This document shows, in pieces, positions 1,131-54,449 of a stretch of DNA of 64,000 nt (position 1 is the stretch's first letter; the number at the start of each line of letters is the position of its first letter). A model generated the notes under the pieces. The model was not told the origin of the DNA. It ran no database searches and saw nothing but the letters and a program-made list of their open reading frames with translations. The translations under genes and the position numbers were made by a program. This DNA comes from Fibrobacteria bacterium (GTDB lineage Bacteria; Fibrobacterota; Fibrobacteria; UBA5070): assembly GCA_035352895.1 (NCBI GenBank), contig DAOPYN010000010.1, forward strand, positions 24,188 through 88,187, written 5' to 3'.

Positions 1131-2159
1131 TTACGCCAATCCCTTGAACTGGCGCAGGAAGCGCATGTCGCCGGCGGTCAGGAGCCCGATGTCCTTGATG
1201 CCGTGTCTCAGCATGGCCATGCGGTCCAGCCCGAATCCGAAGGCGAAGCCCTGGAATTCCTCCGGATCCACGTCGCTGTTCTTGAGCACGTTGGGATGCA
1301 CCATGCCGCAACCGCCGATCTCCATCCAGCCTTCGCGGTCCAGCCCCACCGAGCGGCAATCCACGTCCATTTCTGCCGAAGGCTCGGTGAACGGGAAGAA
1401 GCTCGGGCGGAAGCGCAGCAGCGCGCCTTCGCCGTAGAGGGCGCGCACCATCGTGTAGATGGTCGCCTTCAGGTGTGAGAACGAAATGCCCTTGTCGAGC
1501 ACCAGGCCTTCCACCTGCGTGAACACCGGCGAGTGGGTCGCGTCCGAATCGCAGCGGTACACCTGCCCGCAGTTGAGCAGCCTAAACGGCGGCTTGCGGT
1601 CGCGCATCGCGTGGGGCTGGTAGTTCGAGGTGTGCGTGCGCAGGACCAGCGAATCCTCGCCACGTTCGCGCGACAGGAAGAACGTGTCCTGCATGTCGCG
1701 GGCGGGGTGGTCGTCGGCCACGTTCAGCGCGCTGAAATTGAACCATTCGGTGTCGATTTCCGGCGCATCGGCGATCTCGAAGCCCATGCCCACGAACAGA
1801 TCCAGGATCTCGTCGCGCAGGGCCAGGAGAGGATGGAGCGTCCCGGGTTCGGCGCGATCGCCGGGAAGGGACAGATCCACGCGCTCGGAATCCAGGCGTG
1901 ATTGCAGCGCCTGCGCCCGCAGGCGTTCCTGGAGCTGGTCTAGAGTGGATTCCACCGTCTGGCGCAGTGCTTGGACGGCGGCACCGAAGGTGGGTTTCTC
2001 TTCCGCGGAAAGAGCACCGAGGTGACGCATGAGGCCGGAGATTTCGCCCTTTTTGCCCAAGAAACGAGAACGCAGCTCGGCGAGCTGTTGCTCGCCGGCT
2101 GCGTTGATCTCGGACGCGAGCGAAGCCCAGGCGGACCGGACTTCGTCAAGCGGATTCAT
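1131..2159 (-). CDS. pheS: phenylalanine--tRNA ligase alpha subunit
   Basis: ORF 1131..2330 with the true start at [11 protein letters not shown] (ATG 2159). Class II aaRS motifs are present (FPFTEPSAE, GFGLDRMAMLRHGI). The ATG sits 1 nt inside the rplT stop. Confidence 0.95.
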   Translation of the reverse strand: MNPLDEVRSAWASLASEINAAGEQQLAELRSRFLGKKGEISGLMRHLGALSAEEKPTFGAAVQALRQTVESTLDQLQERLRAQALQSRLDSERVDLSLPGDRAEPGTLHPLLALRDEILDLFVGMGFEIADAPEIDTEWFNFSALNVADDHPARDMQDTFFLSRERGEDSLVLRTHTSNYQPHAMRDRKPPFRLLNCGQVYRCDSDATHSPVFTQVEGLVLDKGISFSHLKATIYTMVRALYGEGALLRFRPSFFPFTEPSAEMDVDCRSVGLDREGWMEIGGCGMVHPNVLKNSDVDPEEFQGFAFGFGLDRMAMLRHGIKDIGLLTAGDMRFLRQFKGLA

Positions 2160-2509
2160 TAGGCGACCTTCGCGACCTCGACGACGCGCTTGAAAGCGGC
2201 CATGTCGGAGACGGCAAGATCGGCCAGGACCTTGCGGTCGAGTTCGATCTGGGCCTTGAGGAGGGCGGAGATCAAGCGGCTGTAGGTGGTTCCGCAGATG
2301 CGGGCGGCGGCGTTGATGCGCACGACCCACAGGCGGCGAGCCTGCCCCTTCTTGTCGCGACGATCGCGGTAGGCGTACTGGCGAGCACGGTCCACGGCCA
2401 TCTTGGCGAGCTTGAACACGTTCTTCTTGCGGCCGAAGTATCCGGCGGCGGCAGCGATGATCTTCTTGCGGCGGTTGCGGGACGGAACCCGCTGAGTCGC
2501 TCTGGGCAT
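2159..2509 (-). CDS. rplT: 50S ribosomal protein L20
   Basis: 116-aa product [18 protein letters not shown]...[15 protein letters not shown] is a typical L20. It sits between rpmI and pheS. Confidence 0.95.
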
Positions 2510-2544
2510 TTCAATTTACCTCGTGATTTGGAGAGCGGCGAAAT

Positions 2545-2742
2545 TTACGCGTAAGGAAGCTGGACGTCAATGCGATGACGATCCGAGGCGTCCACGTAGT
2601 CGCCAAGGCGCAGGTTGCGCTTGAGCTTTTGGGTCTTGTTCTTCTGCAAGTGGCGCATCTTGGTCTGCTTGCACTTGACCTTGCCGGAGCTCTTGACCCG
2701 GAAGCGCTTCTTGGAGCTGGAGAGGGACTTCATCTTGGGCAT
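2545..2742 (-). CDS. rpmI: 50S ribosomal protein L35
   Basis: 65-aa basic protein MPKMKSLSSSKKRFRVKSSGKVKCKQ..., a typical L35. Confidence 0.95.
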   Translation of the reverse strand: MPKMKSLSSSKKRFRVKSSGKVKCKQTKMRHLQKNKTQKLKRNLRLGDYVDASDRHRIDVQLPYA

Positions 2743-2803
2743 CGCGATCTGACCTCTGCTGATGGGTTTGGTTCTGTCTTGGAAAGAGCGTTGGGCAACG
2801 GCG

Positions 2804-3388
2804 TCAGGATTCCGCCGGGGCCGCCTTCGAATCTGGCTTGGCTTCGGCCGGCGCGTCCGACTTGGCCTTCTTGCGCGATGGGGAAAGGAGAAGCCCCAAG
2901 GAACGTCCTTCCATGGAAGGAGCCTGTTCCACCACGGCCTGATCCTCCAGGTCCTTGACCATCTGGTCCAGAAGCCGGCGGCCGTAGTCCATGTGCGCCA
3001 TTTCGCGGCCCCGGAACAGGACGGAAGCCTTGATCTTCCAACCCTTCTCCAGAAACTCGATGGCGTGCTTGAGGCGGTATTCGTAATCGTTCTTGTCGGT
3101 CCGGGGGTGGAACTTGATTTCCTTGACCTTCACGACGTGCTGCTTGGCCTTCGATGCCTTTTCCTTCTTGGCGATCTCGAAGCGGTACTTGCCGAAATCC
3201 ATGATGCGGCACACCGGGGGGCGCGCCATGGGGGCCACCTCCACCAGATCGTATCCCTGCTCCTGCGCCATCTGCTTGGCGATGTGTGTGGGGACCACTC
3301 CGATCTGTTGAGAATCGGCTCCGACCAGTCGCACCTCGGGGATGCGGATCATGTCGTTGACGCGCGTGCGATTTTCGGTGGAGGGCAT
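2804..3388 (-). CDS. infC: translation initiation factor IF-3
   Basis: IF3 homology from MPSTENRTRVNDMIRIPEVRLVG through PPVCRIMDFGKYRFE...VLFRGREMAHMDYG. It has a Lys/Ala-rich C-terminal tail. ATG 3388 was chosen by alignment to the E. coli N-terminus; the ORF track extends to 3538. Confidence 0.9.
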   Translation of the reverse strand: MPSTENRTRVNDMIRIPEVRLVGADSQQIGVVPTHIAKQMAQEQGYDLVEVAPMARPPVCRIMDFGKYRFEIAKKEKASKAKQHVVKVKEIKFHPRTDKNDYEYRLKHAIEFLEKGWKIKASVLFRGREMAHMDYGRRLLDQMVKDLEDQAVVEQAPSMEGRSLGLLLSPSRKKAKSDAPAEAKPDSKAAPAES

Positions 3389-3666
3389 CTCGAAGGAATG
3401 GAACCTGGCCAATCTGTCTCCCATGGGCGCATTGTGGAAACGACGCGTTCGGTGGTGAGGAGCCACTACCCAAAGCGAAGAGTGTGGGAATAGTAGCAAA
3501 TCCTTCGCGAACAATCGAAGGGAACCTGCAAAAGGCACAAGTTCCCCCTATGAGTCAAGATGGAAAGGAGACACTTTGTACACCGGAGAAACCATCCAGC
3601 GTTCAGCAACCTGGAGGATCCGACGAATTGCCCCTCCGTTGGCAACCTCGTTGTACTTTGCACAGT

Positions 3667-4365
3667 ATGGAGGTCCTCATGTCCACCCCCACCAACCGCC
3701 CTCCGGTCCAACACACCTCCAGGGGAGTCACTTTCCTGGAGCTGATGGTCGTTCTGGTGGTCATTGGCCTGTTGAGCGGGCTGGCCGTGGTCAAGTACAA
3801 CACCTTCCAGCGCCAGGCGGAACTGCGGTCTTCCGCGCAGAAACTCTACCAGATCTTCGGATGGGCCCGGCTGGAATCGGAAAAGCGGGGCGACACCTTG
3901 TTGGTGCGGCTGTCCACCTTTCCAGAAGTGAGCGTGTACGTGGACCAGAACGGCGATGGCTTCGTGAATCAAGGAGAGCCTCGACTCTTGATGGATTCCT
4001 TGGCTCGTTCCGTGCGGGTGTTCAAACCAGCGAAGGCTCCACCACCAACCATCGATCCCACCGGTGGCTTTGCTCAGGGCAGCGGTTCCTGTAACTCACG
4101 CAACTGCTGTAGCCGATTCGGCGAAGATGGATTTCCCACTTGGGATGTTCCAGTATTAAAGAATGCGGGGGTTGCGGTATGCGCTCGGAACCTTCCCCGC
4201 ATGCCCTCCGACATCGAGGACGGAGCGATCTACTTGGAATCTGCGGAATCTGGCGTCAAGGAGAAGTGGGCCGTAGTGATGGCCAAGGTGACTTCCAAGA
4301 ATCCATCCCTGTGGACCGCCACCAAGGCTCCGTCAGCGCCCACCGATTGGAGCCAAAAACGATGA
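3667..4365 (+). CDS. prepilin-type N-terminal cleavage/methylation domain protein (FimT/GspH-like minor pilin or pseudopilin)
   Basis: N-terminus MEVLMSTPTNRPPVQHTSRG|VTFLELMVVLVVIGLLSGLAV is a class III signal with Glu at +5. It is the first gene of a four-gene overlapping operon. The stop overlaps the next start (ATGA). Confidence 0.75.
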   Translation: MEVLMSTPTNRPPVQHTSRGVTFLELMVVLVVIGLLSGLAVVKYNTFQRQAELRSSAQKLYQIFGWARLESEKRGDTLLVRLSTFPEVSVYVDQNGDGFVNQGEPRLLMDSLARSVRVFKPAKAPPPTIDPTGGFAQGSGSCNSRNCCSRFGEDGFPTWDVPVLKNAGVAVCARNLPRMPSDIEDGAIYLESAESGVKEKWAVVMAKVTSKNPSLWTATKAPSAPTDWSQKR

Positions 4366-4745
4366 AACGCCACGGATTCACCATTTTGGAAGCCCTGGTG
4401 GCCCTCGTCCTGTTGGGTATCGTGATCACCGGCCTCACCCCCATGTTCCGGGGAGCCAAGTCCTCGCAGGTGGGATCGTACACGGTGGAGCAAGGTTCGC
4501 AGTACGCGGAATTCCGCATCGATTCCCTCCGCTCCCTGGGGCGGGCGGTGTTGGCCAAGCAGCAGATTCCGGGCAACTGGACCAGCCCCGCACTGCCGTT
4601 GGACATGGGCATGACCACCGGAACGTGGATGTGGATGCTGGACACCCCGGCCGTGGCAGGAAAGGCGGGCACCCTCACGGTCCGGGTGCTGTGGCACCAA
4701 GGCTCCGTCCCCCATCAGATCGAGTTGCAAGGAGCCATGCCATGA
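4362..4745 (+). CDS. prepilin-type minor pilin/pseudopilin (PilV/GspI-like), 127 aa
   Basis: Starts MKRHG|FTILEALVALVLLGIV (prepilin peptidase site, E+5). ATGA overlaps with both neighbouring genes. Confidence 0.75.
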   Translation: MKRHGFTILEALVALVLLGIVITGLTPMFRGAKSSQVGSYTVEQGSQYAEFRIDSLRSLGRAVLAKQQIPGNWTSPALPLDMGMTTGTWMWMLDTPAVAGKAGTLTVRVLWHQGSVPHQIELQGAMP

Positions 4746-5986
4746 AACGGGGACTCACGCTCATCGAGCTGCTCATCGCCCTGCTCCTGGCCGGCCTGGT
4801 GGTGGGGTTCGCCGTGACCATGTTGCGCGACGAAAACTCCAACATGATCCACGTGCGGTCGCGCGTCCAATCCCAGACCGCCGCCCGCGACGGCATGAAG
4901 ATCCTGGAATCGGAGCTCCGCGCCGCCGGATTCAGAGTGGCCATGTCCATCTCCACCGCACCGACACGGCCGCTGGAAATGGTTTCCTTGTCCTCCTGCC
5001 CAAACGCCATCGAAGCCCCCTTCCAGTCCTCCGTGGTGGCCATGGATGGCTACAACGGCGGCAACGACACCCTGGATCTGGCCTTTCCGACGATGGTGGA
5101 TGCGACCAGCGGAGCCAATTGCCTATCCATCCGGTGGACGCGGTACGTGGTTGCCAAGAACGGAGATCTGATACGCTACGAGGCGGCATCCAGAGCCAAT
5201 TTTGCAGCAGCACCCCCGGCCGTCGTGGGCAAGAACGTGGATGTGTTCCAGGTTCAATTGGGGGCCTCGGGGATTTCCCGCAACGGCAAGGTGTTCCTGG
5301 CTGCCGCGGATTCGTGCTGTCCAGGCACCACCTGGACCGCGACCGGGGTCACGGTGACTCCCAATGCGACCACCAAGACGGACGAATTGGCCGTGGCAGG
5401 ATCTTGGAGCTACCTATCCAAGGAGAAAGTGCTTTCGATCGGTGAGACCTGGCGCTTGCGGTTCATCGTACAGAACGCGGATGCCGCCCTGCTCAAGGAC
5501 CTGAAGGACAACGCCCCCACCTCGTTCATCAAGATCGGGCTCTTCTCCAGTTCGGGATCGGGAGACGTCACGCTTCCGATCCTCTCGCGCCCTCTCGAGG
5601 CCCCAAGCGGATTCGGACAGCTGGTGGAAGCGGATCTGGTGGTCCCCGAATCCGGCAAGTACAGGATCGGCCTATCCGGAACCGCCACGGGAAAACTCAC
5701 CATCGAGGGATTCAACGCCCTCGCCGTGCGCTTGGGTGCCGATTCCGTTTGGCTCAAGGACCCTTCCGACATGAACCTGGACGATTGGACCCGGGTGAAG
5801 AGCGTCCGTGTGCAGGTGCTCACCCGCGCTCCCGCCGACAAGCAGGATTACCACTCCAAATTCACGGGCTTGTCCAACTTCCTTCAGACCTCCACCTCCG
5901 TTCCAGGGGAGTTCGATGTCAAGGATACCGCCATCCGCGTTCTTCTGGACCACGTCTATCCGGCAGGCAACAATGGAAATTTCTAA
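4742..5986 (+). CDS. prepilin-type minor pilin (PilW/GspJ-like), 414 aa
   Basis: Starts MKRG|LTLIELLIALLLAGLVVGFAV (E+5). It is much larger than canonical PilW/GspJ. Confidence 0.7.
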   Translation: MKRGLTLIELLIALLLAGLVVGFAVTMLRDENSNMIHVRSRVQSQTAARDGMKILESELRAAGFRVAMSISTAPTRPLEMVSLSSCPNAIEAPFQSSVVAMDGYNGGNDTLDLAFPTMVDATSGANCLSIRWTRYVVAKNGDLIRYEAASRANFAAAPPAVVGKNVDVFQVQLGASGISRNGKVFLAAADSCCPGTTWTATGVTVTPNATTKTDELAVAGSWSYLSKEKVLSIGETWRLRFIVQNADAALLKDLKDNAPTSFIKIGLFSSSGSGDVTLPILSRPLEAPSGFGQLVEADLVVPESGKYRIGLSGTATGKLTIEGFNALAVRLGADSVWLKDPSDMNLDDWTRVKSVRVQVLTRAPADKQDYHSKFTGLSNFLQTSTSVPGEFDVKDTAIRVLLDHVYPAGNNGNF

Positions 5987-8228
5987 GCGTTCCGCCCCTC
6001 GCCAGGGAATGGCGATCTTCGCGGTCCTTTCCTTGATGGTGGTGTTCACCGTCCTGGGGGTGGCCGCCATCACCATCGCCCAACGCGACAACTCCAGCAG
6101 CGGAAACGTGCTGGACATCAAGCAGCGCGAAGCGGCCGCCTACGCGGGTTTGGTGTACGCCCAGAACGAACTCGCGCGCGACCCGGCCAACCTGCTGGCC
6201 ATGCTGGAAAGCTGGCGGACCAGGACGCTGTACGCCAGCCCTACCGGCCCCTTCGGACCGGTGTATCTGAAATTCGATCCCACTGCCGCAGTCGCCCTGA
6301 CCACCACCGATCCCGGCATGTACCAGATCCCCGGCTCCACCTCCAAGATCAAGGTGGAAGTCACGGGAATCACCCTGCCAAGCTCCAACCAAGAACCGCG
6401 GATCGCCTTGCGTTCCACGGGCTCCAGCGCTTCCGGAGACGAACAAACGATCCTGGGCGTGTACCAGATCAAGAACATCCGGATGAGCTCCAGCTCCATC
6501 ACGATGCCCCTCACGCACCCGTTCTACGTGAGCGGAGCAGGAAACTGGGACAATCAATCCGTCACCATCGACGGTGGCAATGCGTTCTTTGGCGGCAAGA
6601 CCCACGTCAATGGAACCAATCGTCATGTTATCCTAAAGAGTGCAGGATTGAGAGTGAGCGGCGATTTCGAACTGGACGACATCACAGAATTCACCGTGGA
6701 CAGCAGCGTGTACATAAATGGGGACTTTCTTATCCACCAAATCACGGGGGCTCTCAAACTCAAACAAAACGTAATTGTCACTGGGAATATTTCCCCTCAA
6801 AGTGACGGGGCCACCTTGCAACTTGATAGTTCTCTTTATCTTATGGGGTCGCCGGGATTCACCATTGCAAAAGCTCTTCGCATTGTCATTGGCAAGGATT
6901 TTTACTTCCCAAATGGATCCCTCAAACTTGAATCCGGATCTTGGATCGATGTGGGTGGATCGGCATATATCCGACGATTTGATCAGGACGTTGGAAAAAG
7001 TATTGCGCTGGACGTTGGAAAACGGTTGGAACTATCCGGAAAGGGAGGAGCTCGACATCAATTTTTTGGAACTGGAAATTGGGGACAACTGATTGTAAGA
7101 AACGGTGCACCAGGTAGTACAATCCAGCCAGTCTCTTTTTCTTCAACCTATTTCCCCACCCGAGCGTCCACGGGCCTTCAGGTTTCCAATAACCCTGGTC
7201 CCTCCTGGATAGCCAACAACTTCATTACGGTGGCCAGTACATCAAATAGACTCCGCCTGATGCCCGACAGCGCAACGACCCATTTCCACACAATGGGTAT
7301 GGGATCACCCGTTTACCTCACCTCGGGAACTACTGGAGATGTCGTACTCCTGAACAAATTGGGCAGGCCGGGCGCGGTGAGTCCATCTGTGGATGCCATC
7401 GATGGATTCGACGATGGTCCTCTTGGGCCGCGCTCGGAGGCGGAAATTGCCAACGGAGCGACAAGACCAACAGAAACGTCCGACTTTGAGCTAGGGGTCG
7501 ACCTGAGCAGGGATCCAACCTTGGTTTCGCGTGGATGGATCGCCACTGCAAGCAGTCTTTGCGAAACGCCTTTTCATACCTGCGCGAAAGCGATTCAGAA
7601 TGCATACGATGCAAACGTCAGTTCCAGGTCTCAATTCTACGGCGAGTTCTTTATCGTGCGACTTACCGGAACTAAATTAGGTTGGGACCTGGGGCGCGAT
7701 TCCGCAACTCGACTTAAAGGCAAGTTCATGTTTGTGGTCCAGGGGAACTATGCCGTCGCCGACGTCGTCTGGCCAACTACCGCACCAAACCCAAATGCGA
7801 AAAACCCCCAAAATGTCATTTTCATTTATGCGAGAGGGAAGAACTATATTTTCGATGGTTTCAGTCCTAGATACAAGAACAATACAACAGATCCAGTGGA
7901 GTTTACCGGCTATGTGCGGTATGATGGGGATTGCTCCATGGCAAAACCTTCAATGACACCGCAAGCACCCTTGATCATTAACGGTGCGCTCCATGTGATG
8001 GGTCCCCCGTACAATGGCACTCCTGGCAGCGCCTCATGCCAAGGATTGACAATAAATTCCGGAGCGGCTGTGACATTCAAATTTGACCAGGCCGCGTTGG
8101 ATGCCGTTGGTTCATCGCTGGGAACGGTGTTCACCAAACCCGATGGAACCAGTCTTCCCATGCCCCCCAATCAATTCCTGCTCATGGAGAACTGGGTGCA
8201 GATGCGGACCTTGGGCGAATTGAGGTAG
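5973..8228 (+). CDS. PilX_N-domain minor pilin-like protein (PilX/GspK-like), 752 aa
   Basis: Start MEISKRSAPRQGMAIFAVLSLMVVFTVLGVAAITIAQRD matches the PilX N-terminal domain (hydrophobic segment, no E+5), followed by a large extracellular region. The start overlaps the end of the previous gene. Confidence 0.65.
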   Translation: MEISKRSAPRQGMAIFAVLSLMVVFTVLGVAAITIAQRDNSSSGNVLDIKQREAAAYAGLVYAQNELARDPANLLAMLESWRTRTLYASPTGPFGPVYLKFDPTAAVALTTTDPGMYQIPGSTSKIKVEVTGITLPSSNQEPRIALRSTGSSASGDEQTILGVYQIKNIRMSSSSITMPLTHPFYVSGAGNWDNQSVTIDGGNAFFGGKTHVNGTNRHVILKSAGLRVSGDFELDDITEFTVDSSVYINGDFLIHQITGALKLKQNVIVTGNISPQSDGATLQLDSSLYLMGSPGFTIAKALRIVIGKDFYFPNGSLKLESGSWIDVGGSAYIRRFDQDVGKSIALDVGKRLELSGKGGARHQFFGTGNWGQLIVRNGAPGSTIQPVSFSSTYFPTRASTGLQVSNNPGPSWIANNFITVASTSNRLRLMPDSATTHFHTMGMGSPVYLTSGTTGDVVLLNKLGRPGAVSPSVDAIDGFDDGPLGPRSEAEIANGATRPTETSDFELGVDLSRDPTLVSRGWIATASSLCETPFHTCAKAIQNAYDANVSSRSQFYGEFFIVRLTGTKLGWDLGRDSATRLKGKFMFVVQGNYAVADVVWPTTAPNPNAKNPQNVIFIYARGKNYIFDGFSPRYKNNTTDPVEFTGYVRYDGDCSMAKPSMTPQAPLIINGALHVMGPPYNGTPGSASCQGLTINSGAAVTFKFDQAALDAVGSSLGTVFTKPDGTSLPMPPNQFLLMENWVQMRTLGELR

Positions 8229-8309
8229 GCATCCACCGGCTGGGTCCGGCGGATGTGGACGAGAAGGAATGGAGCGATTGAGAACGCTTGATCCTTCCTG
8301 GACGCGCCC

Positions 8310-9938
8310 CTAGCGGAGGAGCGTCCAGGTCGCCTTACCTTGGGCTCCTGTGGCGTGCACCACCACCACGCCCTTTTCCTCCAGGCGAAGGAACGCCACG
8401 GGATCGGCGACCACCCCCTGGGCCAGAAGCCGCCCCTGGAGATTGCTCACCCGGACGGTGATCGGCTCCTGCGACGACGCTCCGTGCATCTCCAGGCCAC
8501 CGATGGTGGATTGGACCCGCCACCGCGAGTGGACCGCATTCTTCCCCACCCGAGTCTCGCCGGGATCGGTTTCGAATTGATCCAGCACCAGGCGTCCCGT
8601 GTCGGAGGTGCTCCACTCGATCCTCAAATCCTGGGGACCGGCGGGGATGTCGATGGAATCAGGAGTGGCGAAGGTTCCCATCGACGCACCGGAAGATGCC
8701 GCCACGGAAATCTGGGAGAGCGTCTCCGAACCACGCTTGAGGAGGATCGTTCCCGCCGACCCAGCCCAACCGCGAAGAATCACGCGCGCACGGAACGCCG
8801 AAGCCGCGCGGACCTGGTACTGGGACCAGGATCCCCCGAACAACTCCAGGTGTGGACGTTCCCCGGGCTTGCCGCTGACCACATGATCAAAACCCACGGA
8901 TCCAAAAGCGCGCGCCTCGACGACGCCGGGCAGGGAGAAGGTGTCGAACCGCGCCTTCACCCGCCCATCCCCCAGGATGGCGGTGCGGAAAAAGCTCCCC
9001 ATGGGAGTCAGGTCGGATGCGGTCCATCCTCCGTCCGGCGAGGCGGAGGGGACCAGCGCATCGCCGCCGCCGGTCGCGCGGGAAAGCGACCACCCGCACC
9101 AGGGCAGTCCCAACGTGTCCAGGACCGCCTTCCAGCGCCCGGCCATTTCCAGATCGGCCTTCCCATCCTTGGGCCGCACCGCCGAAAGCTGGTTGACGAA
9201 CACCGGCAACTTCGCCTCCACCAACTTCCCCAACCGGAGGCGATCCTTGGTTTCGTCGGATCCCGGATCCAGCTTCTGCGCATAGACGACATTCGTGTCG
9301 CCCAAGGGATTGGCCAAGGCGGCGTCGGATTCCCGGCTGTCCCGTGGCGTGGAAACGATCACGACTCCGGGATGGTGGGCGCGGATCACGGAGAGGATCT
9401 CCTGGTGGAGCTTGCGCAGCCGGCTCCAATCGTAATCGTTCCCGGAAAGTCCTTCGTACGGCTCGAAGAGGAGGTTGGGCTTGCCGGCGTAGACCATGGC
9501 CATCTCCTCGAAGAAATCCTTCGCCTCCGCGGGATGGTCGGAGAGCGAATCCTCGTGCCAGGACACCACCACATACAGGCCGCGCTCGATGGCTCCCTGG
9601 ATCCACTGGTGGATCCGGGCCTTGGCCAGGTTGGGGTTGTTCCGATAGGCCTCCAAGGCGGGTAGCCGACTCACATCCATCCTCAAGCGCACCACGGAAC
9701 TGCCCCAATCGGTACCGAGCCACCCCATCGCCTGCGGCCCCCAGACCAGGGACTCGTCCTCGGTGCCCAGGTCTCCCAGGGTCATCCCGGCCAACCGCAC
9801 CTTCTGGCCGGTGAATTCCCCCACCAGCGCTCCTTCGCGCACGGAAAGCCACCCGTGGACGGAAACCGGCGAAGCGCAGATCGCGGACACGGACAAGAGC
9901 GAACAAGCGACGAACGCGGAGCGGAAACAGCGAGTCAT
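8310..9938 (-). CDS. secreted glycoside hydrolase family 5-like protein with T9SS-type C-terminal sorting domain (catalytic residues apparently substituted)
   Basis: Signal peptide MTRCFRSAFVACSLLSVSAICA. GH5 core pattern GLYVVVSWHED...FFEEMAMVYAGKPNLLFEPYEG...VFVNQLSA aligns with canonical ...NEP... and ...TEFG.... C-terminus ...ITVRVSNLQGRLLAQG...GKATWTLLR resembles the Por_Secre_tail. Confidence 0.7.
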   Translation of the reverse strand: MTRCFRSAFVACSLLSVSAICASPVSVHGWLSVREGALVGEFTGQKVRLAGMTLGDLGTEDESLVWGPQAMGWLGTDWGSSVVRLRMDVSRLPALEAYRNNPNLAKARIHQWIQGAIERGLYVVVSWHEDSLSDHPAEAKDFFEEMAMVYAGKPNLLFEPYEGLSGNDYDWSRLRKLHQEILSVIRAHHPGVVIVSTPRDSRESDAALANPLGDTNVVYAQKLDPGSDETKDRLRLGKLVEAKLPVFVNQLSAVRPKDGKADLEMAGRWKAVLDTLGLPWCGWSLSRATGGGDALVPSASPDGGWTASDLTPMGSFFRTAILGDGRVKARFDTFSLPGVVEARAFGSVGFDHVVSGKPGERPHLELFGGSWSQYQVRAASAFRARVILRGWAGSAGTILLKRGSETLSQISVAASSGASMGTFATPDSIDIPAGPQDLRIEWSTSDTGRLVLDQFETDPGETRVGKNAVHSRWRVQSTIGGLEMHGASSQEPITVRVSNLQGRLLAQGVVADPVAFLRLEEKGVVVVHATGAQGKATWTLLR

Positions 9939-10055: not shown

Positions 10056-11213
10056 TCAAACACGGGCCGAGGAACTCGATTCCAGACGCTCGCGCAATCC
10101 CCACAGGGCCTTGGGCGAAAGCTGGACATCCGCCTTGGGAGGATCGATGATCGCCACGCAGTGGAACTGGTCCACGGCGGTGTCGCGATGGATGGGACAC
10201 CCCAGAGGCAATCCGGAAGGCGAGATGTAGCTGGCCACCACCGGCGACTTGGCATCCTTGCCGCGGCGGATCACCACGCCGATCTCCCCGTTTTCGAGCA
10301 AGACGTGGTTGCCCGGAGGGAAGATCCCCAAGGCCCGCACCATCGATGTGGCCACTTGGGGCATCACGAATTTCCCCAGGCCCCGCAGGATCTCCACCAG
10401 GGTCAGGTTCGACTTCTCGGTCGCCGCCCAGCTGCGGTGGGTCACACGGGCGGTGTACATGTCGGAGATCCGCAATACCTGGGCTTCCAGGGGAATCCGG
10501 TCGCCGACCAATTCCAGGTAACCCGTTCCGTCGACGGATTCGTGATGGCACCGCACCGCCTCCAACCAGACCGGATCCTGGACTCCCGACGACCGCAGGA
10601 GCTCCCAGGAGGCCAACGGGTGGCCGCGCATCCTGACCTGCTCCGCGTCGTCGATGGGACCGCTGCGCTCGTTGAGGGTCTCGTGCAACTCCAGGGTCGA
10701 CAGGTTCATGGTCATCGCCGCGCACATCATCGACAACCGCGTGGGTCTGGGCATCTCCAACGCCTTGGCCAAGGCCTCCGCGGCGATGGCGGTGTCCATC
10801 TGGTGCTTGATCGAATGGTGGGGCCAGGTGCCCAGGCAGATGGAGGCGATCGCCGCGTCCTGCTCCTGCAGGCAAAGCACCTGGAGACCTTCGGCCAGAG
10901 CGACGATGGTCTCCCGCAGGCGGAGTGGATCGGGAGCCGGGAGCATCGCGCGCTGGAGGCCGTCGAGCATCTCGGAGAGCGAATCGAAAGCGGGCAGCGA
11001 CGCGTTGCGCCTGTAGAGCCGCCGAGCCGATGCGTCGTCCGATTCCAGGGAGAGACGGCTGGCTCCCCGTCGGATCAGTTCGTCCACCATGGCCTGGTTG
11101 GACACGATCTGTCCACGCCGCAGGAGCAGACGACCCGTTCCGTCGAACAGATCGAAGTCCAGTGCGGTGCCCGCGATCAGGTCCAACGAACCGATCCGTC
11201 GCATGGTGGTCAT
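10056..11213 (-). CDS. HD-GYP domain c-di-GMP phosphodiesterase
   Basis: HD domain followed by HHESVDGTGYLELV (HD-GYP signature). Start MTTMRRIGSLDL at ATG 11213. Confidence 0.8.
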   Translation of the reverse strand: MTTMRRIGSLDLIAGTALDFDLFDGTGRLLLRRGQIVSNQAMVDELIRRGASRLSLESDDASARRLYRRNASLPAFDSLSEMLDGLQRAMLPAPDPLRLRETIVALAEGLQVLCLQEQDAAIASICLGTWPHHSIKHQMDTAIAAEALAKALEMPRPTRLSMMCAAMTMNLSTLELHETLNERSGPIDDAEQVRMRGHPLASWELLRSSGVQDPVWLEAVRCHHESVDGTGYLELVGDRIPLEAQVLRISDMYTARVTHRSWAATEKSNLTLVEILRGLGKFVMPQVATSMVRALGIFPPGNHVLLENGEIGVVIRRGKDAKSPVVASYISPSGLPLGCPIHRDTAVDQFHCVAIIDPPKADVQLSPKALWGLRERLESSSSARV

Positions 11214-11349
11214 GGCTCGCGGCCTCCGGACGCGGATGCCCACCGCGGAAACCCCGCGGAGGAAACGATCCACCTCAACATCCTACCGTTCGCGGGAATC
11301 CTCGTCCAGCGCGAAGACCGTACCGAAGACGATGCTGGGCCTGGAGGGA

Positions 11350-13716
11350 CTAGTGTCCCCCCACCGCTTCCTTCTGCTGGGCGAGGTCTTCGGATTCCGG
11401 TCCGTACAAGGTGACGCGGTTGCGGCCGTTCTTCTTCGAGAAGTACATGGCCTTGTCGGCGCCATCGATGAAGTCCTGCTTCACCGAGGCCATGTCCGGA
11501 AACAGGCAGACCCCGATGGAAATGGTGACCTTGAGCATCCGCCCCTCGTGCGGGATGGCCATGCCTTCCACCGCGGCGCGGACGCGCTCGGCGCTCTGCA
11601 TGGCCCCCACCTCGTCGGCCTGGGGCATGAGCACCACGAACTCCTCGCCGCCGTAGCGGGCGATCATGTCGCTGGACCGGATGGCCATCCCCACGCACCG
11701 GGCGACTTCCTTGAGGACCAGATCCCCGATGGCGTGACCGTAGGTGTCGTTGAACCTCTTGAAGTGGTCGATATCGAAGAGCATGAGCCCGATGCGCTGG
11801 CCGTAGCGGGTGGCGACCTCCAGTTGCTGGTTGAGCAAGGTCTGGAAGTGCCTGTGGTTGGGGACCTGGGTGAGGCCGTCGATGGTCGCGAGTCGCTCCA
11901 TCTCCTGGTACATCCGCGCGCGCGTCAGGGCTCCGGCCGCGATGGAGGCGATGGCCGCCAGGAGCTTGGCGTCCAGCTCCTGGTAGGAGCCCGCCACGGT
12001 GGACTCCAGGGTGAGCACCCCGAAGCATTGGCGATCGTCGTTGAGGAACGGAGCGCCCATGATCTCATGGCCTCGCCAACCGATCTCGGCATCCATCCGG
12101 GCCTCGAACACCGCCCGAGGCCCGTCTTGGCCTTCGCGGGCCAGGACTTCCCGACCCGTGCGGAAGACGGCCCCGCAGATGGACGAAGGATCGGATGCGT
12201 CGAAGTAGGCCCCACGCTCCGGCAACGGCACGATCCCCGTCGAAAGCTGGACCTGGGCCATCTGCTTGGAGGGATTCCAGAGACTCACGGTCAACCGTTC
12301 CAGAGGGAACAGGGTGCGCAGGGAGGATTCCAGCACGACCAACAGGTCGTCCGGCTTGAGATGGCGGGTGAGCCTGGACTGGATGTCGTAGAAGGTGTTG
12401 GTGATGGTCGCCTGCCGCTGGATGGCCGTCCGCGCGGATTGGACGGTGACCAGAGCGGAAGCGATGCTCGCGAACCTCTTGAAGTAGTGGTAGTGCTCGT
12501 CGGAGAAGGCGCGCGCCCCCTTGTGGTCGACCACCAGGAGAGCCTGGAGCTCGCCGTTGTCCTCGTTGCGCACCGGCAAGGCCATCAGGGACAGGACGCG
12601 TTCGCCCTCCGGATAGTATTCCGGAGCTTCCCCGTAGTTGGCCACATCGCCGGTCAGCAAGCCGGAACGCAGGGAATTTCCCAGCAATCGGACTCCGGGG
12701 ACGATCCGCGCGTCGGGAACCACGGTTCCCTTGCCGAACTTGGCGTCCAGGAGGAGCTCTCCGCTGATGGGATCCACCAGGAATCCCAAGGCGGAATAGG
12801 AACGGAACACCTTGTGCATCAGGTGCACCACCGGTCCCAGCAACCTGGACATCTGCTGGCGGGCCTGGTCGTCCTGCTCGGACAGGATGGAACGGGACAG
12901 GACCTGGGAAGCGGAAGGGTCGATCTCGTCGCCGCTGGAGGACATCGTGGGATCGTCCCAGGCTCCCTGCACGCGCTGGCGCGGAATCGCCGTCGATGCA
13001 CGAGGATCCACCGGAGGATTGGACAAGCCTTGTCCGGATGGCCCCGTGGGACGCGCATGCGATCCCGAAACGGACGCCGTGGTGGAGCCCACCGGCGCGG
13101 AAACGGAAGCCACCGCATGCACCCCGGACGAGGAAGCCGAAGGGGACGAAGCCGACGCCTCGGAAATGCTCAGTCCACCCCGTCCGCCCCCGGAGACTGC
13201 TTCCATCCGGCCCCGCGGACTGGAGACCTGATGCAGGGAGTGGTGGACCAGGAGGAACACGAGAAGCCAGATTCCGACCTGCGCGAAATGGAAGGGGATG
13301 TCGATCAGGGGGATCTGGACGGCCCCCCACAGCGCCAAGCGGCCGACCAGCAGCGGACTCGCCACCAGGACCACCGCACCGGCCAGAAGATGGAGCCGAT
13401 CCCTCTTCGGATCCGAGATCGGAAGCAATGGGACCAGCCATGCGCCCAGGGAAACCAACAACCAGGACGAATCCGTGGGGGCCACCAGGATTTGCGCCAG
13501 CAGCACCCCGATCGCGAGCATCGAGCCGAAGGCTCCGAGCCTGCGCAGCACAGGCCGCGCGAAAGTGGCGGCCACGGCGAAGGCCACCAGGATCCCGCTG
13601 TAGATCAGGAGTCCTGATGTTGGCGTCAGGCCAGGAAACTGGCGCCCACCAACAAGCCATCCGCTCGCGCCGACGATCCACAGGATGGCCGCAGCCGCCT
13701 GAAGGAAAACACCCAC
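11350..13716 (-). CDS. membrane-anchored GAF-GAF-GGDEF diguanylate cyclase
   Basis: Five predicted N-terminal TM helices, a Ser-rich linker, GAF-like regions, then the GGDEF domain (RYGGEEF active-site motif, I-site-like context). Confidence 0.85.
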   Translation of the reverse strand: MGVFLQAAAAILWIVGASGWLVGGRQFPGLTPTSGLLIYSGILVAFAVAATFARPVLRRLGAFGSMLAIGVLLAQILVAPTDSSWLLVSLGAWLVPLLPISDPKRDRLHLLAGAVVLVASPLLVGRLALWGAVQIPLIDIPFHFAQVGIWLLVFLLVHHSLHQVSSPRGRMEAVSGGGRGGLSISEASASSPSASSSGVHAVASVSAPVGSTTASVSGSHARPTGPSGQGLSNPPVDPRASTAIPRQRVQGAWDDPTMSSSGDEIDPSASQVLSRSILSEQDDQARQQMSRLLGPVVHLMHKVFRSYSALGFLVDPISGELLLDAKFGKGTVVPDARIVPGVRLLGNSLRSGLLTGDVANYGEAPEYYPEGERVLSLMALPVRNEDNGELQALLVVDHKGARAFSDEHYHYFKRFASIASALVTVQSARTAIQRQATITNTFYDIQSRLTRHLKPDDLLVVLESSLRTLFPLERLTVSLWNPSKQMAQVQLSTGIVPLPERGAYFDASDPSSICGAVFRTGREVLAREGQDGPRAVFEARMDAEIGWRGHEIMGAPFLNDDRQCFGVLTLESTVAGSYQELDAKLLAAIASIAAGALTRARMYQEMERLATIDGLTQVPNHRHFQTLLNQQLEVATRYGQRIGLMLFDIDHFKRFNDTYGHAIGDLVLKEVARCVGMAIRSSDMIARYGGEEFVVLMPQADEVGAMQSAERVRAAVEGMAIPHEGRMLKVTISIGVCLFPDMASVKQDFIDGADKAMYFSKKNGRNRVTLYGPESEDLAQQKEAVGGH

Positions 13717-13810
13717 CAGAGTCCTCCGCTATGGGTCAAATGTATGTTTATCGATCCTAGTTTTACCATTTCCATAGGGTACCTGCCAACGGGAAGCGAG
13801 GAGAGGAAGA

Positions 13811-14767
13811 TTGAGTCGATCCAGCTTGATTTCCTGGTGGCAGCGGAGTCGATACCTTCGACAGGTTGCCAAGGCGATCGATTCCACGGTGGCCCCTCCC
13901 CCACGGGCCCAGCCCCTCCTGAGCGGTCCCGGCGTGGTTCTGGTCCCCTTCGACCCCGTCCATGCCGCCCTTGCCAATCCATTCATCCAGGACCTTTGCC
14001 AGACCCTGGAAGGGCCCATCCGCCTTGCCGGCCCCGTATCCAGCCTGCGATGGTCACCGGAAACCTCCCTGCCCCCCATCGAAATCCCGCTTGGGCTTTC
14101 CCCGAAGTCGTTCCGGGAATGGCTCGAATACCACAGGGCCCATCGAACCGACTGGTGCCTCCTGGTTTCCAGATCCCCTTCTCCACTGGAGGAGGCATGC
14201 CTCGCTTGGCTGGGGTCGGGCGCCAGGATCGCCTCCCTGGATGCATGCCTGTCGAGTGCTGCCAACGTCAAGTTGCAAACCCAGCCGGAAGGCTCCTTCG
14301 AGCTCCATCTTCGCCGGACCCTGCGCACCGTGCTGACCGGTTTTCCCCATGGAATCGTGGCCGACCGTCCCAAATCCGGCCCCCGGGTCCTGGAGATCCC
14401 ACCTTCGCTTCCGGAAACAGGGGGACGCACGAAGGCCTTCGTGGAGCAGATCACCCGGTTGGCCACCTCCCAACCCCTCCTGCTGGCGCACTCGGAAAAT
14501 CTTCCCGAACTGATCGCGGACACCGTCCGCAGCCTGGGCCCCCGCATCGCACTGGTCCATTTGCAGGCGGCGAAGGACGTCCAGGAACTGGCGAAGCGTT
14601 CCAGTGTCTTCGTTGGCGTGCGCTCCCCGGCCACCGCTTTGGCCGCCCTCGCGGGGTGCCCGGTCCGTCTGATCGGAGCTTCCGAGGATGCTCTGGACTA
14701 TCCGTCGGAAGGTGTCCAAGTGGTTTCCCTAAAAATCCTTAGGCAAGAATTGGACGAATCGGTGTAG
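13811..14767 (+). CDS. hypothetical protein, weak glycosyltransferase family 9 (heptosyltransferase)-like C-terminus
   Basis: 318-aa ORF with genome-typical codon usage. The C-terminal VFVGVRSPATALAALAGCPVRLIG resembles the GT9 donor-binding motif. Competing minus-strand ORFs look low-complexity. Confidence 0.4.
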   Translation: MSRSSLISWWQRSRYLRQVAKAIDSTVAPPPRAQPLLSGPGVVLVPFDPVHAALANPFIQDLCQTLEGPIRLAGPVSSLRWSPETSLPPIEIPLGLSPKSFREWLEYHRAHRTDWCLLVSRSPSPLEEACLAWLGSGARIASLDACLSSAANVKLQTQPEGSFELHLRRTLRTVLTGFPHGIVADRPKSGPRVLEIPPSLPETGGRTKAFVEQITRLATSQPLLLAHSENLPELIADTVRSLGPRIALVHLQAAKDVQELAKRSSVFVGVRSPATALAALAGCPVRLIGASEDALDYPSEGVQVVSLKILRQELDESV

Positions 14768-14780
14768 ATTTGGCCCTCCA

Positions 14781-14853
14781 CGGGATGTAGCTCAACTGGT
14801 AGAGTGCCTGCTTTGGGAGCAGGTGGTCGCACGTTCGAATCGTGTCATCCCGA
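14781..14853 (+). tRNA. tRNA-Pro (anticodon TGG)
   Basis: Cloverleaf drawn by hand: acceptor CGGGATG/CATCCCG, D-arm GCTC..GAGT, anticodon stem CCTGC/GCAGG with loop TTTGGGA (anticodon UGG, G37), T-arm GCACG-TTCGAAT-CGTGT, discriminator A. Confidence 0.85.
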
Positions 14854-14917
14854 CTCCGGAGCAGGAAGTTCTACTCTTTCCTTCCTGTCCCGGCCCTTCA
14901 CCCCCTTAGGAGAACCC

Positions 14918-15535: not shown

Positions 15536-15613
15536 GCGGGTCGCCCGATCTTTCCGGTCGACGCCCTCTCCGAGCGCCTCGTCGCGACCTACCGCGACGG
15601 GGCGCATCTTGTT

Positions 15614-35368: not shown

Positions 35369-36717
<1,349 letters not shown>

Positions 36718-36718
<1 letters not shown>

Positions 36719-37815
36719 CAGGTCATCCAGCTCCGGTCGGAGGCACCTTCCACGCCGCGCAGCTTGAGCTCGAAGTCGGCTGGATTCGACGCGCTGCGAA
36801 GGGCCACTTCGTACGAGATCACGTCGTCGGTGAAGAGTTTGAAGATGGACTGGTCGAACGACTGGCTTCCGTACTGGGCGGTGCCCTCGCGGATCGCCGG
36901 TTCGATCATGTGCGTCATCTCGGGATTGATGAGGTAGTCGTGGATGGTGGCGTTGTTCACCAGGATCTCGGCGGCGGGAACACGGCCCTGGCGGTCCTTG
37001 CGCGGGAGAAGCCGCAGGGAGATGATCGCCACCAGGGTGTTGGCCAGAAGCAGCCGCACCTGCTGGTGCTGGTGGGGCGGGTAGAACGACACGATGCGCG
37101 AGATGGTCTCGGTGGCGTTCATGGTGTGGAGCGTGCTCATCACCAGGTGGCCGGTGTCGGCCGCCTGCAGCGCGATGTGCATGGTCTCCTGGTCGCGGAT
37201 TTCGCCGATCAGGATGGTGTCGGGATCCTCGCGGAAGCTCGCGCGCAGCGCGTTGGGGAAGTGGTGGGTGTCGTATCCCACTTCGCGCTGGCTGATGATG
37301 GACCGCTTGTCGCGGTACAGGAATTCGATGGGGTCCTCGACGGTGATGATGTTCGAGGAAGTCATCTCGTTGATGTGGTCGATCATGGAGGCGAGCGTGG
37401 TGGACTTGCCCGACCCGGTGGTCCCGGTGACCAGGATGAGGCCCCGCTCCTTGAGGGCCAGATCGCGGACGATTTCCGGCAACCCGAGCCCCTCGAAGGA
37501 GGGAATGGTCTGGGTGATGTGCCGGATGGCCAGAGCCGGAGTGCCTCGCTGGCGGAACGCGTTGACGCGGAATCGCCCCAATCCCCGCACGCCCACCGCG
37601 AAGTCCAGTTCCAGTTCGGAATCGAACCTCGCACGCTGGTTGCGGTTCATGATCACGCCCAGGTAGCTTTCCATGCCTTCCGGACTCACGCGCTCGGTCT
37701 GCAGGCGGAACAGGTCTCCGTTGATGCGCAGGGCCGGCGGGACCCCGACGCGAAGGTGCAGGTCGGACGCGCCGCGGTCCACCATCTCCTTGAAGAGCTG
37801 TTCGATGGTCATCAC
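36718..37815 (-). CDS. pilT: type IV pilus retraction ATPase PilT
   Basis: 365 aa with Walker [10 protein letters not shown], Asp box, Walker B, His box and the PilT signature ...[18 protein letters not shown].... It lies between accB and accC. Confidence 0.9.
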
Positions 37816-54269: not shown

Positions 54270-54449
54270 GGCGAACCTCTTCAGCGACGGCGACACGAAC
54301 GGTCTCGAACGACAGGGCCACGGCCTCCCTATGAAGGAAACGCGAAGCCACATAAAGATTTACCATGATTTTGGTCGCAGGAGGGGCGATTCTGGTTGAT
54401 TCCAGTGGCAAATCGTTCTCGCACGGAGCACGAACCACCCCTGAATCAC

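Follow-up and report, generated by a model that had tools for sequence, protein, structure and literature searches.

A four-gene cassette in an uncultured Fibrobacterota lineage, proposed to encode minor pilins with predicted polysaccharide-adhesin modules for the tip of a type IVa pilus

The DNA analysed here is a 64-kb stretch (64,000 nucleotides, hereafter the window) in which positions 3667-8228 of the forward strand hold four overlapping genes, g1 to g4 (Table 1). Three encode prepilins with a G|xTxxE-type motif, and the fourth encodes a GspK/PilX-type protein without Glu5. When the six frames of the whole 64 kb were scanned for these motifs, three class III signal peptides and a single K-type N-terminus were found, and no more. 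Each lies at the start of one of the four consecutive ORFs of the cassette, so this arrangement is not due to chance. With N_methyl/TIGR02532 above threshold in g1, g2 and g3 (PF07963 gives 23.5 bits against a cut-off of 21.2 in g1, and 29.5 bits in g2), the preliminary description was right to read three consecutive genes as carrying class III signal peptides (G|VTFLE, G|FTILE and G|LTLIE). It was also right about a PilX_N-like start on the fourth, where the family matches are below cut-off. It had given that fourth protein 752 residues, one more than the actual 751, and had counted three ATGA overlaps among four junctions. There are three junctions in all, with ATGA overlaps at two of them (4362-4365 and 4742-4745), while the reported 14-nt overlap of g3 and g4 is present at 5973-5986. 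Between 3300 and 8500, a promoter scan found no promoter-like site and a terminator scan found no more terminator-like sites than expected by chance. The inverted repeat downstream of g4 lacks a T-run and was missed by the terminator scan; judged from its sequence, it is possibly, on weak evidence, a bidirectional terminator.

Table 1. Features of the cassette and its neighbours in the window
Feature	Position	Strand	Description
g1	3667..4365	+	prepilin, 232 aa, or 228 aa with the ATG at 3679 as start; ...SRG|VTFLE
g2	4362..4745	+	prepilin, 127 aa; MKRHG|FTILE
g3	4742..5986	+	modular GspJ/PilW-type minor pilin, 414 aa; MKRG|LTLIE
g3 inserted beta-sandwich	5309..5746	+	CBM-like; about residues 190-335
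g4	5973..8228	+	K-type (PilX/GspK-like) modular tip pilin, 751 aa; ...PRQG|MAIFAVLSLMVVFTVLGV, Ala at +5
g4 pilin module	5973..6533	+	codons 1-187: leader, alpha1 helix 14-82, beta-sheet 97-171 (model secondary structure)
g4 adhesin region	6522..8225	+	residues about 184-751; tapirin-like fold
Short inverted repeat	8231..8258	.	CATCCaCCGG...CCGGcGGATG, lying between the stop codons of the convergent genes g4 and GH5; read from sequence
GH5	8310..9938	-	GH5 cellulase-family protein, 542 aa; PF00150 73.6 bits, E 2.4e-20; convergent with g4
pilT	36718..37815	-	PilT/PilU-family type IVa pilus retraction ATPase; TIGR01420 451.7 bits vs cut-off 319.1; PF00437 E 5e-47

In g1, a GGAGG lies 5-6 nt ahead of the second ATG, suggesting that translation may truly start there, which would leave a leader of 16 aa as in the relatives. 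The first 66 residues resemble TIGR01708 GspH below its cut-off (E 4e-11, 43.2 vs 80 bits), and a conserved D-x-N-G-D-G Ca-binding-like loop occupies residues 93-104, approximately. A g1 profile built from 7 orthologues matched the alpha1 helices of solved type IV pilins (E 2e-8) and, weakly, dockerin repeats (E 0.01). From its position and order in the cassette, its size and the GspH-like N-terminus, we propose that g1 is a FimU/GspH-type adapter minor pilin. The N-terminus of g2, a gene found in every related cassette, resembles HpsB (E 3.8e-8, 33.6 vs 150 bits) and TIGR02523 PilV (E 2.8e-5, 24.6 vs 52.2 bits), both below cut-off; together with gene order, these matches lead us to propose g2 as a PilV/GspI-type minor pilin. 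Against the PDB, the family profiles of g1 and g2 recovered the generic pilin alpha1 helix only, and the identities of H and I are therefore ones that we infer.

In the structural model of g3 (mean pLDDT 73, with defined domains), residues 7-62 form the alpha1 helix, and the protein also has a pilin beta-sheet and, as an insert, a beta-sandwich. The long alpha1 helix is predicted to pack on an antiparallel beta-sheet, as is characteristic of type IV pilins. The modelled fold is that of GspJ/PilW, with GspJ, EpsJ and XcpW among its structural matches, and among pilins it comes closest to a type IV-like pilin of Thermus. J is thus the one member among H, I, J and K whose assignment is independent, based on its predicted fold. 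In sequence, PilW is matched below cut-off (E 0.004, 17.5 vs 26 bits), HpsC is weakly similar, and one g3 orthologue has a weak PpdB match. The best structural matches of the insert outside pilins are carbohydrate-binding modules (CBMs), pointing to a beta-jelly-roll fold of the CBM4/16/22-like kind, with no Pfam CBM match at E values up to 1. Identity across the fold matches of both g3 and g4 is 7-16%, and beta-helices and jelly-rolls have many functions.

The g4 protein begins PRQG|MAIFAV, with Ala at +5 and no Glu5. Gly-1 is kept in at least 90% of 22 homologues, in which the motif R-x-G|x-A-x-F is conserved, while the matches to PilX_N (E 0.064, 13.7 vs 25.5 bits) and to the GspK N-terminus (E 0.002, 17.7 vs 130 bits) are below cut-off. 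In the AF2 model (mean pLDDT 83, pTM 0.71), the pilin module is followed by a beta-helix from residue 184 to about 440, a long loop at about 441-535 and a conserved C-terminal part ending ENWxQ...ELR, whose last strand could return to the pilin sheet. Searches of PDB sequences with g3, g4 and the g4 family profile (phmmer/hmmsearch) gave nothing meaningful, including no match to a CBM or tapirin family. The structure predictions that the preliminary description had called for bear out its view that the last two proteins carry large folded extracellular modules, placing a CBM-like beta-sandwich in g3 and a tapirin-like beta-helix in g4. Disordered or low-complexity C-terminal tails are rejected for both at these pLDDT values. 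The pilin module of g4 has native codon usage (GC3 0.83) and is 49-83% identical to its homologues, and GC3 breaks at codon 187. A recent one-off horizontal transfer is weakened as the cause of the low GC3 of g4, which recurs in every one of the four close-clade members.

Synteny in relatives revealed the same cassette (about 230/125/420/750 aa) in all 11 related Fibrobacterota loci examined, conserved as a unit. Gene overlaps are kept there (4, 4 or 16, and 11 or 14 nt), as is the signal-peptide motif, except in the g1 ORF of locus L004, which as called starts inside the motif. None of the 11 loci has T2SS or pilus-machinery genes beside the cassette, and no T2SS genes adjoin the window cassette either. 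The cassette and GH5 diverge far more quickly than the genes around them. Between genomes in which the flanking genes (rplT, rpmI, infC and pheS on one side; HD-GYP, GGDEF and HrpB on the other) are 80-99% identical, g1-g4 share 54-79% identity. Such divergence is as expected of exposed adhesins. The homologues come from water and sludge MAGs, and this uncultured, high-GC lineage may not be cellulolytic.

A link between the cassette and the neighbouring GH5 gene had been suggested. The adjacency is real, although confined to the window and three close relatives (L003, L033 and L034); in other clades the cassettes have other contexts. Membership of GH5 in the operon is rejected, since it is convergent with g4, and so not co-transcribed with it, and does not accompany the cassette in other clades. 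The further claim that GH5 is T9SS cargo was not confirmed. Its C-terminus matches TIGR04183 at the correct position but below threshold (12.2 bits vs a cut-off of 23, E 0.14), and neither TIGR04183 nor PF18962 identifies it as cargo; the sequence is suggestive only. The pilT gene reported at 36718 holds up, scoring well above its TIGR01420 cut-off. No major pilin, PilB/C/D or PilM-Q was found within the 64-kb window. Likewise, gspC, D, E, F, G, L and M are absent from the 64 kb and from the flanks of the 11 related cassettes, so that the neighbourhood does not mark g1-g4 as pseudopilins. A survey of 10 Fibrobacteres genomes found pilB in 9/10 and pilC, D, M, N, O, Q and T in 10/10 (PMC4704652). 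The window also encodes glycosyltransferases, a GGDEF protein and an HD-GYP-like protein.

The cassette resembles the core minor-pilin sets FimU-PilV-PilW-PilX of P. aeruginosa and Myxococcus, GspH-I-J-K, and PpdA-PpdB-YgdB-PpdC of E. coli, in which four minor pilins are co-transcribed. As in these sets, g1-g4 form one operon of four genes standing alone, away from machinery genes, with a GspJ-fold J and a last subunit, K, that lacks Glu5. Unlike them, no family cut-off is reached for H, I, J or K, and, unlike sets of the FimU-PilV-PilW-PilX type, the operon has no PilY1 or PilE gene. J and K are also far larger, at 414 aa vs about 200-270 and 751 aa vs about 170-330. A Glu5-less K-type minor pilin with a large beta-solenoid, encoded with partner minor pilins, is found in ComZ of Thermus thermophilus (PMC6561018) and in cyanobacterial PilX (PilX-Com and PilX-EPS; bioRxiv 10.64898/2026.02.12.705559). 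Both are precedents for K-type pilins acting as tip caps or adhesins, and both are proposed to cap the pilus and to stand in for PilY1. ComZ (6qvi_B), in which the solenoid sits within the pilin sheet between its strands, is the third-best Foldseek match of g4 (E 0.015, probability 0.38); the g4 beta-helix may be inserted in this way or appended. Modular type IV pilins with an adhesive module grafted on for display at the tip, such as PilB-vWA and PilC-lectin of S. sanguinis, are already known, with grafts that include carbohydrate-binding modules (Raynaud et al., bioRxiv 10.1101/2021.01.27.428410). This cassette is a variant with modules on both J and K: in contrast to the S. sanguinis pilins, two different modules sit on neighbouring subunits of one tip complex, and neither is detectable by sequence signatures.

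By two methods, no structure in the whole PDB matches g4 better than the Caldicellulosiruptor tapirins (Calkro_0844, Calkr_0826 and Calhy_0908; PDB 4WA0, 6N2B and 6N2C). Tapirins are experimentally shown cellulose adhesins whose genes lie directly downstream of pilin genes (bioRxiv 10.1101/359786, 10.1101/614800). Their high affinity for crystalline cellulose is ascribed to a strip of aromatic residues along one face of the helix. The two are alike in size (about 640-750 aa), and the modelled beta-helix core of g4 shows the tapirin-specific architecture with its long connecting loop, albeit with about 100 more loop residues between helix segments. The tapirin sequences that we retrieved have, like g4, a hydrophobic, Glu5-less N-terminus after Gly (DG|SVLIVVIIVIAVLSTILLG) and are encoded directly after a prepilin gene; one tapirin cluster in UniRef is named 'PilX N-terminal domain-containing'. 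Both hosts belong to polysaccharide-degrading groups and have a cellulase gene nearby. Overall sequence similarity is not significant (10-14% identity). In profile comparisons by hhalign, the g4 family matched 8 aligned tapirins weakly and locally (E 2.6e-4, probability 42%, 57 columns), where the beta-helix begins in each; its match to a single tapirin was not significant (E 0.051). A C-terminal 'E-x-W-x-Q' motif common to the two was dropped, as the tapirin C-terminus, read from a reverse primer, is ...NMVTR. The tapirin host is a monoderm thermophile, whereas g4 comes from a diderm. Tapirin genes close a machinery locus, coming after pilM-N-O and a single prepilin gene, whereas g4 belongs to a complete stand-alone H-I-J-K cassette. 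Cellulose binding is demonstrated for tapirins only, and the adhesin role of g4 is predicted.

Together this leads us to favor, at a probability of about 0.68, the reading that g1-g4 make up the H-I-J-K core of minor pilins in a retractile type IVa pilus whose tip carries two polysaccharide-adhesin modules. The order would be FimU/GspH-like, PilV/GspI-like, PilW/GspJ-like and PilX/GspK-like; tip location, assembly order, ligand and use of T4aP machinery are likewise inferred. We hypothesize that one translationally coupled transcript would yield all four proteins, which would insert into the inner membrane and be processed by prepilin peptidase. By analogy with GspIJK and PilVWX, I, J and K would join via their alpha1 helices into a complex that primes pilus assembly and remains at the distal tip, with K, lacking Glu5, capping the fibre and H connecting the complex to the major pilin. 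J would display its CBM-like beta-sandwich and K its roughly 570-residue tapirin-like beta-helix module. The tip would thus combine two adhesin modules directed at an insoluble polysaccharide, with cellulose or some other glucan of plant fibre as the most plausible ligand. Retraction driven by PilT would then draw the cell onto its substrate. The earlier suggestion of a pilus-tip adhesin that attaches to polysaccharide or fibre, as against an ordinary T2SS pseudopilus, is supported by the predicted folds, the CBM-like insert, PilT and the absence of T2SS neighbours.

That pseudopilus is the alternative suggested by the best, sub-threshold NCBIfam N-terminal matches (GspH and GspK), by the likeness of g3 to GspJ/EpsJ/XcpW structures and by mention of a type II secretion pathway in the F. 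succinogenes genome paper (PMC3079729). The cassette would then encode the GspH-I-J-K tip of a T2SS located elsewhere, with the large modules selecting or pushing secreted substrates such as glycoside hydrolases instead of adhering. We consider this improbable. The equivalog cut-offs are far from reached (43 vs 80 bits for GspH, 18 vs 130 for GspK), no other gsp gene sought lies nearby, a beta-helix replaces the defining alpha-domain of GspK, and so large an adhesin-like cap would hardly be sensible on a periplasmic pseudopilus. PilT, which T2SS lack, is present, and a T9SS has been proposed for the hydrolases of Fibrobacter (PMC6851124). An equally slim chance goes to the tip of a competence pilus like that of Thermus PilA2/ComZ, in which the g4 beta-helix would bind extracellular DNA for uptake. 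Its points are the rank of ComZ among the g4 matches, the overall design of K-type pilin plus large beta-solenoid shared with ComZ and the cyanobacterial PilX-Com proteins, and the Thermus pilin heading the matches of g3.

Somewhat better placed, though still unlikely, is a tip that recognises the cell's own secreted exopolysaccharide, for surface motility or flocculation and not for plant fibre, along the lines suggested for cyanobacterial PilX-EPS/HpsA-D and Myxococcus T4P-EPS. HpsB, a hormogonium polysaccharide pseudopilin, is the best N-terminal match of g2, and g3 has its weak HpsC similarity; extended solenoids occur in the PilX-EPS subfamily, and the glycosyltransferases, GGDEF and HD-GYP-like proteins of the window and the water and sludge origin of the homologues would fit. 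However, the Hps matches cover the generic N-terminal helix only and lie far below cut-off, the structures most like these proteins are those of cellulose adhesins and of CBMs for plant polysaccharides, and the close clade keeps GH5 next to the cassette.

The means by which Fibrobacter and related bacteria grip cellulose have been under debate for decades. The evidence that implicates type IV pilins is only indirect, with a pilin absent from cellulolysis-deficient mutants (PMC6851124) and likewise from adherence-deficient mutants (PMC3079729). The cassette is a testable candidate for such a grip on plant fibre by Fibrobacterota, in which the adhesin would be the pilus tip itself. A predicted tapirin-like beta-helix on a K-type pilin, joined by a CBM-like insert in J, offers the Fibrobacter and Caldicellulosiruptor fields a concrete test case. 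It would also be the third beta-solenoid type, after ComZ and cyanobacterial PilX, among pilus systems without PilY1. If binding is confirmed, the modules would be new cellulose-binding scaffolds invisible to current sequence signatures.

The interaction of tapirins with type IV pili 'remains to be determined' (10.1101/614800), and the available tapirin papers do not describe them as pilins. We tentatively speculate, as a single joint proposal that we hold to be possible but doubtful, that tapirins and this Fibrobacterota family form one class of K-type (PilX-like) cap pilins with the beta-helix as cellulose adhesin. Tapirins would then be the terminal subunit of the type IV pilus, not free 'scout' or S-layer-bound proteins, and the same pilus-tip solution would serve two unrelated lineages of fibre degraders, the monoderm Caldicellulosiruptor and the diderm Fibrobacterota, reinforced in the latter by a CBM-bearing J subunit. 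Under the same proposal, exchange or diversification would affect the adhesin part of g4 independently of its pilin part, which the change in GC3 at codon 187 and the hypervariable block containing GH5 both suggest.

The preliminary description had placed class III signal peptides in three of four consecutive ORFs, and both the sequence and the family profiles agree. The prepilin motif scores above threshold in g1 (PF07963, 23.5 bits), in g2 (PF07963, 29.5 bits) and in g3 (TIGR02532, 21.2 bits against a cut-off of 16.3). The fourth gene is indeed large, with a K-type N-terminus, but the 752 aa first assigned to it counted the stop codon. Both ATGA overlaps and a 14-nt overlap occur between the genes, as described, but there are three junctions in all and only two of them are ATGA. 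Scanned for these motifs in all six frames, the whole window yielded three class III signal peptides and one K-type N-terminus, all in the cassette, and because the motifs are found nowhere except g1 to g4, the arrangement is not due to chance. The claimed divergence from infC is also borne out, as infC, rpmI, rplT and pheS lie divergently upstream, and the matching Pfam families are present in the syntenic genes of the close relatives L003, L033 and L034. Downstream, the convergent neighbor is a GH5 gene as proposed (PF00150, E 2e-20), however the T9SS-cargo label is not upheld at threshold, with TIGR04183 at 12.2 bits against 23. Since it is convergent with the cassette, GH5 was ruled out as an operon member. 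The reported pilT encodes a genuine PilT/PilU ATPase (TIGR01420, 451.7 bits against a cut-off of 319.1). It sits between genes for the biotin carboxyl carrier (accB) and biotin carboxylase (accC), with abutting coordinates, an unusual location for a pilus retraction ATPase.

Features of the window, with their identity to the genes of three syntenic relatives (L033, L003, L034)
Feature	Position	Strand	Length (aa)	Identity (%)	N-terminus
g1	3667-4365	+	232	56-62	...SRG/VTFLE, then hydrophobic stretch
g2	4362-4745	+	127	73-79	MKRHG/FTILE, then hydrophobic stretch
g3	4742-5986	+	414	58-75	MKRG/LTLIE, then hydrophobic stretch
g4	5973-8228	+	751	54-64	...APRQG/MAIFAVLSLMVVFTVLGV, Ala instead of Glu at +5
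GH5	8310-9938	-		51-55	
HD-GYP-like	within 10056-13716	-		84	
GGDEF	within 10056-13716	-		85	
rplT				98-99	
infC				95	
pheS				88-89	
HrpB				80	
accC	35369-36718	-			
pilT	36718-37815	-			
accB	37817-38302	-			
Giant ORF	48570-54353	-	1927		
Giant ORF	55322-61369	-	2015		

A structure model of g4, built from 22 homologues, has a mean pLDDT of 83 and a pTM of 0.71, with low confidence confined to the membrane-embedded N-terminus. After helices (residues 14-82) and a sheet of five strands (97-171), the model shows a beta-helix that runs from residue 184 to roughly 440, a stretch rich in loops, and a conserved C-terminal part ending in an invariant ENWxQ...ELR. Against solved pilins, the g1 and g2 family profiles align with the alpha1 helices only, and their sub-threshold N-terminal matches are to GspH (E 4e-11), PilV (E 2.8e-5) and HpsB (E 3.8e-8). 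Based on these matches, gene order and size, g1 is the candidate H subunit and g2 the candidate I subunit. A conserved loop, D-x-N-G-D-G-K...D, with a helix after it (SVYVDQNGDGFVNQGEPRLLMDSL), is present in g1 and its orthologues at residues ~87-110 (window ~3925-3995). In the PDB it has weak matches to single Ca-binding repeats of dockerins (1ohz_B, E 0.01; 2ccl_B, E 0.013). Because there is only a single repeat, this is probably a Ca-binding loop and not a dockerin. A CxxxxCC motif at g1 residues ~141-149 is partly conserved, the second Cys of the CC pair alone being invariant in seven orthologues, while g3 has invariant cysteines at residues 86, 127 and 192-193, including the vicinal pair C192-C193. 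The conserved cysteines of both proteins may form unusual disulfides or metal sites.

Full-length homologues of the g4 protein number 22 (32-62% identity, 719-764 aa) and have no Pfam domain; an identical copy is present on a 95-kb JGI contig. All named homologues come from Fibrobacteria/Fibrobacterota MAGs. When 1.84 billion representatives were searched exhaustively with a profile, 119 proteins reached E 1e-3 or better, and some 50 of these, 710-915 aa long, share the N-terminus and the start of the beta-helix; the named proteins were again from Fibrobacterota, and in GTDB relatives were recovered from three species genomes only. At least one MAG has two g4 paralogues, P0012 and P0178 (PK208_08360 and PK208_09750; see also locus L035), each presumably in its own four-gene cassette, an arrangement reminiscent of Myxococcus and cyanobacteria, which have multiple minor-pilin sets. 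In all related loci with called genes the four-gene unit is kept (~205-244, 119-142, 403-433 and 740-806 aa), as are the small overlaps, and in L006-L008 a separate ORF scan recovered the upstream prepilin genes too. No pilus or T2SS machinery genes adjoin the cassette in the related loci, where the unit always stands alone. The order infC-[cassette]-GH5 is kept in the close relatives (L033, L003/L006 and L034). In the more distant L001, L002, L004 and L005 the cassette instead has a divergent split histidine kinase pair upstream (a HisKA-only protein of ~286 aa and a HATPase_c-only protein of ~440 aa), which may be a dedicated regulator, and an aminotransferase downstream; other loci have unrelated neighbors. 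The GH5 adjacency is therefore clade-specific. Just past GH5 lie an HD_5 protein and a GAF-GGDEF diguanylate cyclase, in an order kept in L003; control of adhesion and cellulolysis by c-di-GMP has been proposed for F. succinogenes (PMC6851124).

The cassette and GH5 form a hypervariable block (3667-9938, 51-79% identity) between flanks at 80-99% (1131-3538 and 10056-17872). Exposed proteins that undergo diversifying selection or allelic exchange would be expected to form such a fast-evolving block in a conserved backbone. Within g4 the helix region is the least conserved part (23-66% identity), and GC3 falls from 0.83 in codons 1-187, the pilin module, to 0.53 in codons 188-751, the adhesin module, where the lowest value is 0.34. 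By maximum likelihood the composition changes at codon 187 (nt about 6534), which is the pilin/beta-helix boundary of the model. The low GC3 is common to the close clade (L033, L003, L034), absent from L001, L005 and L009, and seen as a partial dip in L004, and could reflect either module replacement from a lower-GC donor or a long-standing codon peculiarity.

Tapirins, the Caldicellulosiruptor cellulose adhesins, have a mass of ~70 kDa and an affinity for crystalline cellulose like that of CBM3, and whether they interact with the pilus is, according to the authors, still "to be determined" (bioRxiv 10.1101/359786, 10.1101/614800, 10.1101/622977). Using a published primer sequence, we retrieved a tapirin locus, L010, from a metagenome collection, and its first tapirin is 100% identical to C. 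obsidiansis COB47_1678. Here a 282-aa prepilin (MKLKG/FSLVE) precedes a 643-aa tapirin with the N-terminus ...KKVDG/SVLIVVIIVIAVLSTILLG, and the second tapirin begins ...NLSG/SALIIVIIIIAILSTVLLG. Both have a Gly followed by a hydrophobic helix lacking Glu5, as in PilX/GspK and g4. One tapirin cluster is named 'PilX N-terminal domain-containing protein' in UniRef, and PF14341 matches one of eight tapirins (E 0.006), about as weakly as it matches g4. Profile-profile comparison of the g4 family with the eight tapirins gave a single local match (E 2.6e-4, probability 42%), between g4 residues 178-238 and tapirin residues 265-321, which is the beta-helix entry in both. The features in common are therefore the N-terminal type, the position after a prepilin gene and a specific beta-helix architecture. 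Homology of g4 and tapirins is plausible but not proven; functional analogy is the safer claim. Between the two tapirin genes of L010 (3212-6716, ~6.1 kb in all) are two ORFs (571 and 459 aa) that by their sequence resemble transposases, and the same spacing recurs in L014.

We propose, with a probability of about 0.68, that the cassette encodes the tip complex of a type IV pilus, equipped with adhesive modules; within that reading, cellulose as the ligand takes somewhat under half of the probability. By analogy with GspIJK, PilVWX, ComZ/PilA2 (PMC6561018) and cyanobacterial PilX (bioRxiv 10.64898/2026.02.12.705559), the coupled genes would yield stoichiometric subunits, of which I, J and K would nucleate assembly and then stay at the tip, with K, because it lacks Glu5, capping the fiber and H acting as adapter to the major pilin. 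No PilY1 gene lies alongside the cassette, so the K module would assume the plug and adhesin role of PilY1, as proposed for cyanobacteria. At the tip a tapirin-like helix would stand next to a CBM-like sandwich, and retraction of the pilus, once bound, would fall to PilT. Among surveyed Fibrobacteres genomes nearly all have pilB and all have pilC, D, M, N, O, Q and T (PMC4704652).

A T2SS pseudopilus tip is very improbable: the sub-threshold Gsp N-terminal matches are all that favors it, gsp machinery adjoins none of the cassettes examined, the g4 model has a beta-helix in place of the GspK alpha-domain, and PilT is present in the window. We give as little credence to a ComZ-like DNA receptor, which would share the design of ComZ but leaves the CBM-like insert of J unexplained and matches far more weakly in structure than tapirins do. 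Recognition of self-EPS, as in Hps/PilX-EPS, fits the origin of the MAGs in water and sludge, though we consider it unlikely.

As a class, modular pilins are established and widespread (Raynaud et al.), and solenoid-bearing K-type pilins are already known in ComZ (PMC6561018) and cyanobacterial PilX (bioRxiv 10.64898/2026.02.12.705559). What is new is a predicted tapirin-like module fused to a K-type pilin within a diderm's complete H-I-J-K cassette, another, putatively CBM-like module carried by the J subunit, and the spread of the cassette across an uncultured Fibrobacterota radiation. A new implication is that tapirins may in turn serve as cap subunits of the pilus. Resting on predicted folds, the cassette would offer a good lead, and one that can be tested, on two open questions of adhesion. 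Elsewhere in the window, two giant ORFs with coding-like GC3 (0.82 and 0.85 in table order) and no Pfam match at E up to 1e-4 are similarly rich in V/G/A/T/S/D/N, and may encode large surface proteins.
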